From NCBI GenBank assembly GCA_045613315.1, contig JAZLAV010000018.1, positions 33,975 to 97,974 on the forward strand: a DNA stretch of 64,000 nucleotides. Direction: 5' to 3'. A program made the position numbers and the translations under genes. The notes below the pieces were generated by a model that searched no databases, was not told the DNA's origin, and saw only the letters and a list, made by a program, of their open reading frames with translations. Shown in pieces: positions 58,753-64,000 of the stretch. Origin of the DNA: Candidatus Enterousia sp. GTDB lineage: Bacteria > Pseudomonadota > Alphaproteobacteria > Rs-D84. Each line of letters opens with the position of its first letter. Positions within the stretch are counted from its first letter, which is position 1.

Positions 58753-58762
58753 GTAATATTGG

Positions 58763-58798
58763 ACATCCCGTGGTAATCCCACGGGATGTTCTTTTTCG
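58763..58798 (+). terminator. terminator after tRNA-Ser
   Basis: acatcccgtggtaatcccacgggatgt + tctttttc. Confidence 0.6.
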
Positions 58799-58911
58799 CC
58801 CCATTTCTGGCGATTTTTACCCACGATATTTCCAATGTATATCGCCAAATTTATCAAACCAGCCCAAATAGCAAGCATTGATATACTTTGGCTATTTTCG
58901 TTGAGGCACTT

Positions 58912-59229
58912 TTAATGATTTTTACCTTTAAAACTATAATCTTTGCCATAATTTTGGGCGTCCTGTTTATGAGCCGCCCAATGTGCTTGTTGGTCATGGA
59001 ACACATACAAATTTGATGGACGATTGTCTTGTTTGTTTCGGTTTATATGATGCACAACTTCACCAGATTGTAAAGGTCTACCAAGTTTTATTTCTGCCAT
59101 ATGACGATGAACTAGCTGCCCTGAATCTTTGTACACTCTATATCCATTGGCATTAGTATATGTTTTTGACGTACTGCGAGAATAAGATGCAAATTTATTC
59201 CTCATTTTCATCACCTCCTTTAGCATCAA
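58912..59229 (-). CDS. HNH endonuclease (phage-type)
   Basis: …GEVVHHINRNKQDNRPSNLYVFHDQQAHWAAH… is an HNH motif with the conserved Asn and His. Confidence 0.65.
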   Translation of the reverse strand: MMLKEVMKMRNKFASYSRSTSKTYTNANGYRVYKDSGQLVHRHMAEIKLGRPLQSGEVVHHINRNKQDNRPSNLYVFHDQQAHWAAHKQDAQNYGKDYSFKGKNH

Positions 59230-60080: not shown

Positions 60081-61700
60081 TTATAGATTAAACAGTTTGA
60101 CTTGATACTCAAAGTCATCACTTCTTGATGCTTTATCCAAAATATCTCTAACTACCATATTAATTTTGCCACTTAATAGTTTATTCACGATTGACGGACT
60201 CAGATACGAGAGAGATAAATATTTATAAAATAATCTTGGTGAAGTACGAGCATTATGTATAACATTATCTACATTGCCATTTTGTTCGTATAGTTCCCTA
60301 TATTTCCATGCGGTGGCAAAGGCTTTTAGAATCAGATGGTTGTTGTCAGTGACATTTAGCACACCATTTTTACCACGGTCATATACTGTATTCACATATT
60401 TACGAAGGAATACTTTCTCTGTGATTGTTATGCTGTTATCACCAATTATGTATTCCATTTTGTCTGTGTTTGGATTCATATAATTTTCCTTGATAAAAGG
60501 CTGTAATTTTTGTGCATCGGTCGTAATTGCATAAATCAGCTGCTCTTGTGAATATACAACTTTCTCAACCAGTGATTGAATTAGGTTGCGTTTTTCTACG
60601 AAATTCATGTTTGTAACATCAATTCGTTTTAATATAGTTGCCAGATTTATGGGCAAATTCGACATATCGCTGTTCAGAAAATCTGTTATCGTTTTTATAA
60701 CAATTTCATCCACACGGCCAGCGGTTAGATAGAACCCCTTAGTCGCGTAATAATACGCGGTCTTTTTGCCTTTAGCACTGGTACGCTGGTTTATAAATTT
60801 TACACCATTGTGATTAAATAATTTTCCAGTCAATATATTGGGGGCATGTGTGCTTTGGGATTTATTATTCGCATTATTAGCCAGCGCAATTTGGACACGA
60901 TTAAATAGTTCTGTAGAAATAATTGGCTCGTGTTCGCCTTTGGCAAAAGTGCCTTCTTTTTTATTTTCGATTTGCCCGATGTAAATCTTATCGCGCAATA
61001 TACGGTGCATACTCATTTTAGCAATAGGATTGCCACCACGTATTTTTCGTTTATTGGTTTCCCAGCGTTTACCATATATACCATTTTGTTTTGCGTATTC
61101 GGTTAAATCATTCACAGATTGCAGTTCTAGATATTTTTCAAACAGGTGTCGCACTTGTTCTGCTTCGGTTGGGTTTACTACCAACTTTTTGTTAATCAGG
61201 TCATAACCCAAACGTGGTGCACCACCCATCCACAGTCCTTTGGCTTTTGATGCACGGATTTTATCGCGTACACGTTCGCTTGAAACTTCACGTTCAAATT
61301 GGGCGAACGACAGCAACATATTCAATGTTAATTTACCCATAGATGTACTGGTATCAAATGATTGGGTAATGGACACGAAGTTTGCACCATATTTCTCAAA
61401 GTATTTCATCATATTGTGGAAATCCAATATGGAACGTGATAATCGGTCAACCTTGTAAACAACCACAGTATTAACCAAACCGTGCGCCATATCGTCCAGC
61501 ATTTGTTTTAATGCGGGGCGTTCCATGGTTCCGCCAGATATCGCCGCATCACTGTAAGTTTTATAATATTGCCAACCATTAAACGATTGTGATGCTATAT
61601 ATGCCTTGCACGATTCTTCTTGGTTCTGCAAAGAATTAAATTCCTGTTCAAGTCCATGTTCAGTTGATTTGCGTGTATAAATCGCACACTTAATTGTCAT
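60081..61700 (-). CDS. large serine recombinase (resolvase/invertase catalytic domain + recombinase domain)
   Basis: N-terminal CAIYTRKSTEHGLEQ (catalytic Ser) ... VVVYKVDRLSRS, then a recombinase/zinc-ribbon region; 539 aa. Confidence 0.8.
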   Translation of the reverse strand: MTIKCAIYTRKSTEHGLEQEFNSLQNQEESCKAYIASQSFNGWQYYKTYSDAAISGGTMERPALKQMLDDMAHGLVNTVVVYKVDRLSRSILDFHNMMKYFEKYGANFVSITQSFDTSTSMGKLTLNMLLSFAQFEREVSSERVRDKIRASKAKGLWMGGAPRLGYDLINKKLVVNPTEAEQVRHLFEKYLELQSVNDLTEYAKQNGIYGKRWETNKRKIRGGNPIAKMSMHRILRDKIYIGQIENKKEGTFAKGEHEPIISTELFNRVQIALANNANNKSQSTHAPNILTGKLFNHNGVKFINQRTSAKGKKTAYYYATKGFYLTAGRVDEIVIKTITDFLNSDMSNLPINLATILKRIDVTNMNFVEKRNLIQSLVEKVVYSQEQLIYAITTDAQKLQPFIKENYMNPNTDKMEYIIGDNSITITEKVFLRKYVNTVYDRGKNGVLNVTDNNHLILKAFATAWKYRELYEQNGNVDNVIHNARTSPRLFYKYLSLSYLSPSIVNKLLSGKINMVVRDILDKASRSDDFEYQVKLFNL

Positions 61701-62130
61701 GTTTTATCCTTTTGTTTATTCCAAAGAAGAAATTACCAGACATTTTCATACCTGCGATTTTGGTTGCAACTGCTGACAATGAGGAATATTTGTCGCCATT
61801 ATATGAAAAACTGCCATCGTCATTGACTAACACTAGGTGTTTTATCCCCTTGAAATATCTTGTTAAAATTATACCTGGGACAAAGTTATATTTATTTGGG
61901 CACGCATGGTCTAAACATTGTTCTGGATTATCCTTGTATTTTCGAATTTTTACCAAATATTTATGTTCAATTCGAAGATTTAACCTGTCACATTGAATAT
62001 AATACCAAAGCGATCGCATTTGCCGTTTGAACGGATATTGTGAATATTTTGCCCACAATCGCGCCCGTTCATCAAATGACAGGGCTTTTAACTCCTCCAT
62101 CGTCTTGGGCATGTTATCTTTATATGACAT
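61690..62130 (-). CDS. small protein paired with serine recombinase (DUF2924-like)
   Basis: 146 aa. ...EELKALSFDERARLWAKYSQYPFKRQMRSLWYYIQ... pattern. It overlaps the recombinase start by 11 nt, the usual arrangement for DUF2924 partner proteins. Confidence 0.4.
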   Translation of the reverse strand: MSYKDNMPKTMEELKALSFDERARLWAKYSQYPFKRQMRSLWYYIQCDRLNLRIEHKYLVKIRKYKDNPEQCLDHACPNKYNFVPGIILTRYFKGIKHLVLVNDDGSFSYNGDKYSSLSAVATKIAGMKMSGNFFFGINKRIKHDN

Positions 62131-62409
62131 ATCGGCTCCTTTATAACGTCACGCAATTACCGCTCTGAAAGCCCCAGAAGTCAAGTTAATAAAACAAAAA
62201 TGTTTAATAGTTGTGATATGCGACAAGTTTGAAGCACAATGGCAAAACATATATCAATGGGTTTTATTGATAATTTACAATATAAACGGCGATTATCCAT
62301 AATTGTCATCAAATAACAATATAAAACAGTGGATTTTTTAGCCCTTTTATCCTATTGTATAAATTGTAAGTAGATATACAAGTTAGCTTAATTAACCCAT
62401 GGAAGCAAA

Positions 62410-64000
62410 ATGGCTGAAGAATTTATAGAATTAAATCGCTCTTATCGTAGTATAGAATATAGAATAGAATCACCGAAGATGTTGTCAGAATTATTACTAG
62501 ACGATTCTTGTAATATAATTGTTATAATTGGAGATAAGGGGAGTGGTAAGACAACAGAGTTAAAACAATTTTATTGTAAAAATAAAAATAATACAGTGTG
62601 GGGGCATTTAAACGATGTTGTGAATGCAAAAGATAGATTTCAAGACCAAATATTCAGATTGTTTTCTGGTGATGTAGCAAGTTATAACATTTTGTTAGAT
62701 TCTATAGATGAATGTCGTATGTTAGACAATGCCCAAGATGCATTTAAAGTTGCTCTTGATAATTTGTGTGAAGTATTGGGAAAATTTCCAGAAAAATTGA
62801 AGTATACAAAAATATTATTTACTTGCCGAGGAAGTGATTGGCGTGGCAATTTGGGGTGGTATACAGAAAAGCAATACGAAGGTGATTTAGATGCAAAACT
62901 TATAAATGAAAGTTTTAATAATTTATTTGTACCAGAAAACGAAGCAAATTCTGTTGATGACAAACAAAACTTTGTTCCAAAAATAAAAATATTTCATTTA
63001 GAAGATTTGTCGGAAGAACAGAAAAAGATTATAGCAAAAAATTATGGTTTGAATGGAAAGAGCTTAACAAATAATTTATTTAATCAATTTACTAATACAC
63101 CGCTTGAATGCATACAGTTAGTAGTATTCCTTAAACAACACTCGATAACCAATTATGATATGGATGAATTTTTCCTGTATCAGTTAAGATACAGATATAG
63201 AGAGTTGAACAATCATAGAACTTCAAATATGCCAATAAAATTAATAGAAAAAATGGCTAAGAGGTTAGCTGTATCCACTTTGTTTAAACAGACTCTTTCG
63301 ATCAGTAAAAAAGAGAGTTATGGATCTTTCGCAACACAAGACAGTGTTTCTGTTTTAGAATTATTTCCTGAAGAAGATCATCAAACAATAAAAGACTTTA
63401 TAAGTTCTACAATATTTTCTTCAAATGGGTTAAATAGAGTTAAATTTTGGAATGAAACGGCTAGAGATTACCTGGCTTATTTATGGTTAAAAGAAAGAAT
63501 TGCTAACGGAAAATATAGAGATGTTGTACAACACCTTTTCATAAACGGTCATCCTAAAGAACAATTTATTCCAGCACTGATTGCTTTGAGCAATAGTGAA
63601 CCAAAAATTCATAAACTTTTAATAAAAAATCATCCAGAAGCATTTATAATCAATTCTCACCTTTGTCCAAATTTGCCGTCTCGGGATAAAGAAAATATTA
63701 TAAACGATATTTTACAAAAATATGAACACCGTATACGTTGGATGTCTGGATGGGGGCAAAGGTTATTCGTGGCAAACTTTGCTAATAACATCGGGGTAGA
63801 TTTTTTGCTACACAAATTGAATCATATTGATAAATCTTCGGAAGATAAACGTTTATTTGTGCTTGAACTTATGAATGGGATACAACCCCAAAATTTAATT
63901 GCTACAGAAGAAAAAAAATTAAAAAAATTTTTGTATAAAATCATTGATACGGATACAAGTTATTTACAGTCTTATGCCTTAGAAATACTAACAAAATTTA
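62410..64000 (+). CDS. P-loop NTPase (AAA+/STAND-like), 5' part of at least 530 aa, continues past window end
   Basis: Hand translation from the ATG at 62410 is open through position 64000, checked line by line. Walker A is IIVIIGDKGSGKTTEL and a Walker-B-like NILLDSIDE lies about 55 aa later. Very AT-rich. The gene is missing from the ORF track because it has no stop inside the window. Confidence 0.7.
   Translation, partial: MAEEFIELNRSYRSIEYRIESPKMLSELLLDDSCNIIVIIGDKGSGKTTELKQFYCKNKNNTVWGHLNDVVNAKDRFQDQIFRLFSGDVASYNILLDSIDECRMLDNAQDAFKVALDNLCEVLGKFPEKLKYTKILFTCRGSDWRGNLGWYTEKQYEGDLDAKLINESFNNLFVPENEANSVDDKQNFVPKIKIFHLEDLSEEQKKIIAKNYGLNGKSLTNNLFNQFTNTPLECIQLVVFLKQHSITNYDMDEFFLYQLRYRYRELNNHRTSNMPIKLIEKMAKRLAVSTLFKQTLSISKKESYGSFATQDSVSVLELFPEEDHQTIKDFISSTIFSSNGLNRVKFWNETARDYLAYLWLKERIANGKYRDVVQHLFINGHPKEQFIPALIALSNSEPKIHKLLIKNHPEAFIINSHLCPNLPSRDKENIINDILQKYEHRIRWMSGWGQRLFVANFANNIGVDFLLHKLNHIDKSSEDKRLFVLELMNGIQPQNLIATEEKKLKKFLYKIIDTDTSYLQSYALEILTKF

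Follow-up and report, generated by a model that had tools for sequence, protein, structure and literature searches.

The window examined in this study, a stretch of 64,000 nucleotides from Candidatus Enterousia sp. (assembly GCA_045613315.1, contig JAZLAV010000018.1, positions 33,975 to 97,974), ends within a mobile element that sits in the 3' end of a host tRNA-Ser gene and carries a serine integrase and a large NTPase. The host gene, tRNA-Ser(UGA) (tga), is located at 58663–58752 on the plus strand by ARAGORN and by junction alignments, which also delimit a 7-bp core, CCGCCAG, at 58747–58753, with the inferred crossover dinucleotide CC at 58747–58748. The core is followed by the P' arm of the element (TAATATTGGAC...) and an element-borne hairpin terminator, which together were mapped to 58754–58796 (+) with a terminator scan. 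Next come, on the minus strand, genes for a 105-aa HNH endonuclease (58912–59229), an acidic 226-aa protein (59195–59875), a 539-aa large serine recombinase (60081–61700), referred to as the integrase in the following, and a 146-aa DUF2924 protein (61690–62130). Beyond an AT-rich, divergent intergenic region (62131–62409), in which promoter-like sites are no commoner than in shuffled sequence, the NTPase gene starts on the plus strand at 62410 and leaves the window at 64000, after the first 530 codons of a protein of 1379 aa. The GC content is 0.44–0.48 in the host part, which makes up the rest of the window, falls to 0.33–0.40 in the element and reaches 0.28–0.31 in the NTPase gene.

An initial annotation of this DNA, made from its letters alone, had described the tRNA gene, the HNH nuclease, an acidic cysteine-containing protein, the 539-aa recombinase, the small overlapping DUF2924 reading frame and the drop in GC content, all of which we recovered. 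It also listed the divergent reading frame with Walker motifs that runs off the window, which is indeed present but starts at 62410 rather than at 62411. Its interpretation of the locus as an integrative island with defence cargo is supported as largely right but incomplete, for a phage packaging module lay in the two thirds of the element that it could not see.

The integrase has an N-terminal catalytic domain (Pfam Resolvase, E = 1.2e-39, residues 6–156) with the nucleophile Ser12 in the motif YTRKST and a second motif, VDRLSRS, followed by a Recombinase domain (PF07508, E = 7.7e-15, residues 177–275). It matches the PHROG family phrog_95, ‘integrase’, at 4e-96 in an alignment that reaches residue 416. 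Its relatives at 85–100% identity fall into more than 120 clusters, with a ratio of nonsynonymous to synonymous substitution rates (dN/dS) of 0.04–0.08. The best match in phage databases is 47.6% identical and no deposited phage integrase exceeds 48%. Exact-protein look-ups of the window integrase, of the DUF2924 protein and of protein P0001 returned no record.

The DUF2924 protein (Pfam DUF2924, E = 1e-19; a weak RAMA match; phrog_11806) is encoded upstream of the integrase in all variants, and here its gene overlaps the integrase start by 11 nt and is translationally coupled to the integrase gene. DUF2924 has been linked to a RAMA-type DNA-binding domain (PMC11342252), and in regions of the Wolbachia phage WO, too, the recombinase is preceded by a DUF2924 gene (PMC10299305). 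It may reasonably be guessed that DUF2924 serves the integrase as an accessory or directionality factor. In many relatives, a gene for 232–234 aa lies on the opposite strand between the DUF2924 and integrase genes (L008 4981–5685, L031 11418–12122, L001 9193–9891); it is missing from the window, L012 and L099, where the DUF2924 gene instead runs directly into the start of the integrase gene and overlaps it.

Between the integrase and the attachment (att) site lies a first variable gene slot, occupied here by the HNH and 226-aa genes. The HNH protein (Pfam HNH_3, E = 1.2e-12, and PHROG HNH families) is 104 aa long from an internal start in L099 and L001, its gene has a dN/dS of 0.04, and in sister elements it is replaced by CoiA_N, Abi_C or a 447-aa gene. 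The 226-aa gene always accompanies the HNH gene, whose start is overlapped by its stop. Its product ends in a zinc-ribbon-like CxxC...CxxxxC motif; searches of Pfam, PHROGs, PADLOC, NCBIfam and PDB returned nothing for it.

The NTPase contains a Walker A (GDKGSGKTT) and a Walker B motif (LLDSIDEC) and shows weak similarity to nSTAND and AAA. Queried with its 530-aa fragment, a word-indexed homology search found nothing, and an exhaustive protein search then recovered a family of 137 representative sequences (clusters), mostly of 1380–1470 aa. As the word-indexed search had missed an identical full-length protein that is present in the representative library, negative results on such low-complexity, AT-rich proteins need caution. 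In the family alignment, residues of Walker A (G46, K47) and Walker B (D97, D100, E101) as well as R140 are invariant, and the C-terminus carries the motif E1272...D1282...E1295-x-K1297, of the form E...PD...ExK. The NTPase domain starts at residue ~35 and has the build of STAND proteins, in which the P-loop NTPase with its Walker A and B motifs leads into helical and winged-helix domains; its fold is of the NACHT/STAND type, with Avs4 as the best structural match. Around positions 530–575, the family profile matches HEAT-like alphaRep proteins in a PDB search, which was otherwise empty. The effector domain, which the initial annotation had expected beyond the window, is C-terminal: the last 290 residues were modelled with a predicted local distance difference test score (pLDDT) of 84, and their best matches are the restriction-endonuclease folds of CdiA-CT EC869, BamHI, Can2 and LlaBIII. 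With this fold and the conserved E, D and ExK residues, the NTPase ends in a PD-(D/E)xK nuclease.

Over nearly its entire length, the protein aligns with the NCBIfam family antiphage_HyoA (NF058534; E = 1.5e-114, residues 36–1378 against profile positions 41–1427 of 1430), and judged by this alignment it is a divergent, full-length member of this named family of antiphage STAND proteins. Our literature searches found no paper on HyoA, and IMG/VR holds no relative of the NTPase. The genomic context of its closest homologue, P0122, consists of ordinary genes and is uninformative.

The left boundary of the element could be fixed to nucleotide 58747, because from there to 64000 the window aligns gap-free, at 98% identity, with the Logan contig L012, to which it is unrelated upstream of 58747. 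We aligned ten junctions (the window, L001, L009, L010, L012, L013, L015, L018, L020 and L031), in all of which CCGCCA(G/T/C) leads into an arm that contains AATATT and a 13-bp hairpin ending in a T-run, and which all diverge immediately 5' of CCGCCA. The insertion at tRNA-Ser proposed in the initial annotation is real, although its edge lies inside the tRNA 3' end, at 58747–58753, and not at position 58753. A similar correction applies to the terminator. A hairpin with a 13-bp stem and a T-run does follow the tRNA at 58761–58796 (hairpin 58761–58791), but it belongs to the element and not to the host, since it travels with the element to other insertion sites: it is kept at every occupied site, non-tRNA junctions included, while unrelated hairpins are found at empty sites.

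In the left junction, attL, the B arm consists of the T-arm and the acceptor 3' strand of tRNA-Ser, and the last 4–6 nt of the tRNA (G-CCA) are now element-derived. CCGCCA comprises the end of the acceptor strand, the discriminator base and CCA, so that the element rebuilds the tRNA 3' end and brings a new terminator with it; the tRNA gene thereby remains intact.

The right junction, attR, was observed in two chromosomal contigs, L103 (442 kb) and L104, where the P arm is followed by the core CCGCCAG/T and then by a native-type terminator. Compared with the end of contig L099, the P arm is identical in L103 and has one mismatch in L104, whose core reads CCGCCAT. L099 itself ends in ...ACCGTCAAATATTACAACTC, and the same sequence occurs in L103, where it continues with CGCCAG and the native-type terminator, so attR reads ...ATATTACAACT-CCGCCAG-TATAAAATTTCGGTCATGTTATTGGCCGATTTTT. 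An attP-like junction is found in a tandem array on the IMG/VR contig UViG_3300029904_000303, an element variant of 14.8 kb, in which a homologous arm runs directly into the P' arm of another element. From these junctions, attP was reconstructed as GTCAAATATTACAACT-CC-GCCAGTAATATTGGAC; the attP junction reads AAATATTACAACTCCGCCAGTAATATTGG. Its arms, GTCAAATATTACAACT and the reverse complement of GCCAGTAATATTGGAC, match at 12 of 16 positions around the non-palindromic CC. Such dyad symmetry around a non-palindromic dinucleotide is a hallmark of serine-integrase sites, and a very short att repeat is likewise expected of these enzymes. The distal att repeat predicted earlier does exist in relatives, but the sequence common to attB, attL, attR and the attP-like junction is just the 7-bp core CCGCCAG rather than an extended stretch of the tRNA 3' end. 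The crossover most likely took place inside this shared heptamer, at the CC at 58747–58748. The far end of the window copy should lie ~8.2 kb past the window, at ~72.2 kb in window coordinates. The expected sequence there is ...ACCGTCAAATATTACAACT-CCGCCAG, and the terminator native to the tRNA should come next.

Several observations accompany the att sites. Four copies of A(A/T)TCCCTG(T/A) occur within ~140 nt of the P arm (L099 13276–13408), and they are conserved in other element variants (L010, L103, L104 and L009); they are candidates for accessory-protein binding sites or a packaging signal. In L104, 170 nt past attR (~5700–5900), a 3' remnant of tRNA-Ser consists of GGGGGTTCGA and, ~75 nt further on, ATCCCTCACCATCCGCCAT, and may be the scar of earlier insertions. 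At three non-tRNA junctions, L012 (6731–8742), L018 (12559–15307) and L009 (12559–21611), the usual core, P' arm and hairpin are preceded by a left flank that is neither tRNA nor element P arm. The flank of L012 encodes a 366-aa glycosyltransferase-like protein and a 218-aa zinc-ribbon protein and reads TTCGAAT-N10-CCGCCAG, which resembles a tRNA T-arm; that of L018 encodes a KAP NTPase (PDC-S20), and that of L009 a type VI retron reverse transcriptase (RT) and a 1290-aa protein. With a GC content of 0.32–0.40, these flanks are island-like and could represent tandem islands or secondary target sites. We had considered the L012 junction as the element's own attP, but rejected this because the true P arm (L099 end, L103, L104, L010) differs from it and is dyad-symmetric; the L018 flank was likewise rejected as the far end of an element with HSP70-type cargo, as BLAST revealed no relation. 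Finally, L106 (2241–9092) carries a 490-aa gene, a DUF488 gene and a gene for a 1510-aa NOV_C protein between lgt and another element variant, and no tRNA was detected at this locus.

Comparison with relatives that lack the insertion, as the initial annotation had suggested, identified metagenomic relatives (L021, L019, L024, L035 and L038) in which lgt, TM2 and tRNA-Ser keep their synteny and the site is empty. The order is Bax1-I, lgt, a TM2/zinc-ribbon gene and tRNA-Ser(UGA), with Lgt 77% identical in L021 and an identical tRNA in L019. There, the tRNA is followed by unrelated native hairpins and then by host genes (PrmC-like, M23 peptidase, FtsH, TilS), and the empty loci are attB sites. 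In the window, the gene between lgt and the tRNA encodes a 103-aa zinc ribbon–TM2 fusion (58292–58603), which by eye is 80–90% identical to its counterpart in L021. Furthermore, one and the same integrase sequence (P0039) with one cargo set is found at tRNA-Ser(UGA)/lgt in three assemblies and at tRNA-Ser(GGA)/rpoZ in two others, which demonstrates mobility and two natural target sites. Together with attR in chromosomal contigs, these findings bear out the integrative island at tRNA-Ser.

Since the window ends within the element, we derived the complete gene list from contig L099 (13,439 bp), which was found through the full-length 1379-aa NTPase P0121 in the exhaustive protein search, is 95.4% identical to window positions 58778–64000 and extends further. 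A first block on the minus strand comprises the HNH, 226-aa, integrase and DUF2924 genes. Then follow the NTPase gene on the plus strand and, all on the minus strand, a 390-aa gene, the gene for the large terminase subunit TerL (482 aa; phrog_38, 2e-92), a DUF5681 gene (134 aa; its PHROG is of unknown function), a fusion of ParB-N and N6_N4-methylase domains (443 aa; phrog_498, 6e-114) and a 241-aa gene. These 10 main genes are complemented by the call of a 33-aa open reading frame (ORF) at the contig edge. By extrapolation from copies of 95–98% identity, the window copy should span ~13,469 bp, from 58747 to ~72.2 kb.

The integrase, DUF2924, ParB-methylase, DUF5681 and TerL genes form a backbone that is present in every variant seen, while the remaining genes turn over. 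Purifying selection on these backbone genes, those for packaging included, is strong, with a dN/dS of 0.05–0.12 for TerL, 0.07–0.10 for DUF5681 and ~0.08 for the ParB-methylase; the values range over 0.05–0.16 across these three and the 241-aa gene. In a circular form of the element, the HNH gene would adjoin the 241-aa, ParB-methylase, DUF5681 and TerL genes on their upstream side. Of the packaging genes, HNH and TerL are present, and DUF5681 is a positional candidate for the small terminase; the literature mentions DUF5681 solely in a virion proteome. For both TerL (46.6%) and the integrase (47.6%), the best match in phage databases is a single unverified 5.4-kb faecal virome scaffold with the same backbone genes. 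In L001–L005 (~493–1940), sister elements of the methylase/ApeA type, TerL is split into two overlapping ORFs of 262 aa and 208–233 aa, a split that recurs in several independent samples and could reflect a frameshift, a pseudogene or programmed expression.

No capsid, portal, protease, tail or replication family was matched in L099, L103, L104, L106 or the tandem element; for L099, replication and virion genes were sought in Pfam (precomputed), PHROGs and NCBIfam, and three of its proteins are unannotated. A complete prophage, which we had considered because of the terminase in L001, was rejected after the mapping of the two ends and in view of the complete gene content.

The cargo occupies two variable slots, slot 1 with the HNH and 226-aa genes described above and slot 2 with the genes for the 1379-aa NTPase and the 390-aa PDC-S11-like protein. 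In sister elements, slot 2 holds an IetA-like ATPase beside an HSP70-like protein, methylases together with PDDEXK and ApeA genes, in one case a restriction-modification system with an HNH nuclease, and in another AAA_21, T5orf172 and Abi_C genes. A type VI retron lies in islands that directly adjoin the elements, as does a KAP NTPase (PDC-S20). That sister elements also carry defence genes agrees with the earlier view of the STAND/AAA-like NTPase as defence-type cargo. The PADLOC check proposed at the time returned matches in sister elements and adjacent islands (type VI retron RT, 1e-74; IetA, 4e-28; PDC-S20, 2e-47; PDC-S11, 5e-12), though none for the NTPase itself. One cargo operon, L013 1860–7501, encodes an 828-aa HSP70/MreB-like protein, a 470-aa IetA-like AAA ATPase and a 582-aa protein; unlike the usual IetA–IetS pair, it may constitute an undescribed defence variant.

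Among the window, L099 and L008, the synonymous divergence (dS) is 0.003–0.007 for the NTPase versus 0.69–0.79 for the integrase, from which we conclude that the cargo cassette was recently exchanged between diverged backbones. The divergence is mosaic when compared with the sheep metagenome-assembled genome (MAG) contig L008: window positions 61744–64000 are 98.8% identical, with a dS of 0.003, and positions 59489–61717 are 90% identical, with a dS of 0.79. The intergenic region between the DUF2924 and NTPase genes (62131–62409) lies at the edge of this exchanged segment.

Taken together, we consider it likely that the locus harbours a ~13.5-kb serine-integrase element in tRNA-Ser that bears a STAND antiphage NTPase as cargo and a packaging module and spreads in a satellite-like manner. 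As the comparisons show, the integrase joined an attP of the form ...GTCAAATATTACAACT-CC-GCCAGTAATATTGGAC... to an attB made up of the T-arm and acceptor 3' end of tRNA-Ser. In our model, DUF2924 would assist the integrase or set its direction. The NTPase would act as an antiphage sensor that recognizes a phage component through its helical repeats, oligomerizes via the NACHT module and thereby activates the C-terminal PD-(D/E)xK nuclease, leading to DNA degradation. After excision, HNH, DUF5681 as the candidate small terminase and TerL would package the element into the capsids of a helper phage. Helper-made capsids are proposed since genes for capsid, portal and tail are missing from the element, and a satellite-like rather than a plain island character since it has TerL, DUF5681 and the ParB-methylase in addition to the HNH gene; the satellite lifestyle is thus an inference. 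HNH proteins are known as parts of terminase-dependent packaging, and satellites that carry packaging genes have been described (10.1101/2022.09.08.507074, PMC9618062).

Several points weigh against this proposal. Neither an excision product, a free circle nor a virion-packaged copy was found, and a pattern scan of IMG/VR for attP-spanning sequences gave one tandem junction only. No helper phage was identified, and no replication gene or regulator of the AlpA or Stl kind was recognized in the element. In one sister type (L001–L005), TerL is split, and those elements may be able to do without packaging. The window does not reach the far end of this copy, which was deduced from contigs of 95–98% identity, and the left flanks of the non-tRNA junctions L012, L018 and L009 do not fit a simple model. 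As for the individual proteins, the integrase contains no cysteine in residues 276–539 (window 60081–60875) and has no zinc-ribbon Pfam match; the canonical zinc-ribbon domain is therefore missing. Canonical phage large serine integrases have a four-cysteine zinc ribbon with an embedded coiled coil. The NTPase scores 384 bits against HyoA, far under the equivalog cut-off of 1200 bits, and is consequently a homologue and not an equivalog; moreover, no PADLOC (2023) model, AVAST included, matches it.

A rival reading is a plain integrative defence island that only excises and integrates, in which TerL, DUF5681, the ParB-methylase and HNH do not serve the element's own packaging but perhaps a defence against phage packaging, or are retained for some different reason, and which moves by other routes. 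The lack of recognized replication, regulatory or capsid genes, of packaged or circular copies, the split TerL in L001–L005 and the absence of HNH from several sister types all speak for such an island. We nevertheless regard it as unlikely, because TerL, DUF5681 and the ParB-methylase stay together in every variant despite complete turnover of the cargo, and because the packaging genes are under strong purifying selection; in addition, relatives occur in virus-derived collections, and the element has no conjugation or other transfer genes. Far less probable still is a decaying, phage WO-like prophage remnant that has become fixed at tRNA-Ser and is immobile. While the DUF2924–integrase pair, the ParB-methylase and the terminase resemble alphaproteobacterial phage modules (PMC10299305), with phage WO gp31 41% identical over the catalytic half of the integrase, and while virion genes are missing, this explanation is already contradicted by the evidence in hand: close relatives have empty sites, the same integrase and cargo occur at two tRNA-Ser genes, the ends are conserved and exact on either side and attP is symmetric, dN/dS is 0.04–0.16 on all backbone genes, and cargo was recently exchanged (dS 0.003–0.007).

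A separate doubt concerns the NTPase, which might be a housekeeping ATPase or serve element maintenance, for example in addiction or partition, rather than immunity. The missing PADLOC match and the position of the closest homologue, P0122, among ordinary genes could be read in this way. The protein nonetheless matches the NCBI-curated antiphage family HyoA from end to end, combines a NACHT fold nearest to Avs4 with a nuclease effector, and lies in a slot which in sister elements is filled by retron, restriction-modification, IetA-like, Abi and PDC genes; it is also missing from most host relatives and has a foreign base composition. A non-immune role thus seems very improbable to us.

Beyond the satellite-like element that we favour, a bolder version would see in it an undescribed class of satellites of gut Alphaproteobacteria with reduced genomes, which have a complete terminase machinery of their own (HNH, DUF5681 as the small subunit, TerL and a ParB-methylase) and a serine integrase but neither capsid nor replication genes, which would therefore steal the whole procapsids of a helper phage and shuttle interchangeable antiphage cassettes, and whose cysteine-free integrase, aimed at the CCA end of tRNA-Ser, would form with its att site a new, compact, programmable-looking pair. 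We put this forward tentatively, as a possibility that we think somewhat more likely to be wrong than right. Should the satellite reading be true, the element would be the first case of a serine integrase combined with a full terminase, and it would sit between the classical phage-inducible chromosomal islands (PICIs), which have the small terminase only, and the capsid-forming cf-PICIs, which have capsid and terminase. Independently of this, the junctions describe attP and attB at nucleotide level for a new serine integrase that targets a conserved tRNA 3' end, and integrase/att pairs are sought for genome engineering. Likewise, the reverse domain order of the HyoA-like NTPase offers a test case for the coupling of sensing and effector functions in bacterial proteins resembling NLRs (nucleotide-binding leucine-rich repeat proteins).

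Close homologues come from rumen and gut MAGs labelled as Alphaproteobacteria, in one case as Candidatus Enterousia, and contigs of up to ~1 Mb carry several of them. Genomes of Enterousia and of its order, Rs-D84, are reduced to under 1 Mb (PMC12306168). As they keep a family of active 10–15-kb elements that swap immune genes, these reduced-genome gut symbionts are still engaged, by way of a compact shuttle, in an arms race with phages. Elsewhere in the window, a second stretch of low GC content (36374–39211; 0.32 versus 0.45 in the host) comprises three minus-strand genes whose translations, inspected by eye, resemble glycosyltransferases; this stretch probably represents a variable cluster for surface polysaccharides and is unrelated to the element.

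A tRNA-targeted island or satellite that carries defence genes is of a known kind, and the element shares features with several described systems. Like the tRNA islands with tyrosine integrases (P4-like elements, integrative and conjugative elements, PICIs), it inserts into a tRNA 3' end and restores the tRNA, carries defence cargo and coexists in the population as empty and occupied alleles; unlike these, it uses a serine recombinase and a 7-bp core in place of the usual direct repeat of 15–50 bp. With the large serine integrases of phiC31, Bxb1, A118 and phage WO, its integrase shares the N-terminal resolvase catalytic and recombinase domains, a dyad-symmetric attP with a non-palindromic dinucleotide and minimal identity between attP and attB. 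It differs from them in its cysteine-free C-terminal region, which has no canonical zinc ribbon, and in its attB, the 3' end of a tRNA-Ser that is rebuilt upon insertion, whereas serine integrases insert more often within protein-coding genes. A DUF2924 gene ahead of the recombinase is a feature in common with phage WO (PMC10299305). The NTPase aligns with HyoA (NF058534) end to end in length and architecture and has the NACHT/STAND fold and PD-(D/E)xK effector of Avs4 and other Avs proteins, but its order of NTPase, repeats and nuclease is the reverse of the effector–NTPase–sensor order of Avs1–5.

Among satellites, the element resembles PICIs, PICI-like elements (PLEs) and marine virion-encapsidated integrative mobile elements (VEIMEs) as a small (~10–15 kb) integrative element without tail genes, whose variable slots contain defence genes, as reported for satellites. 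A serine recombinase is also found in PLEs and in VEIME module 3 (PMC9618062), and with its own HNH, TerL and, in DUF5681, candidate small-terminase genes, the element is reminiscent of cf-PICIs (10.1101/2022.09.08.507074). In its circular form, the position of HNH upstream of DUF5681 and TerL would resemble the HNH–TerS–TerL order of cf-PICIs and of packaging systems that depend on HNH (10.1101/2022.09.08.507074). It lacks, however, the capsid, portal, protease and connector genes that define cf-PICIs, and, in contrast to satellites in general, no primase/replicase, AlpA or repressor was recognized in it, while it possesses a ParB-N/methylase fusion and DUF2924 instead. What is new is the combination: a cysteine-free serine integrase together with DUF2924, ParB-methylase, DUF5681 and TerL, in an element without capsid or replication genes.

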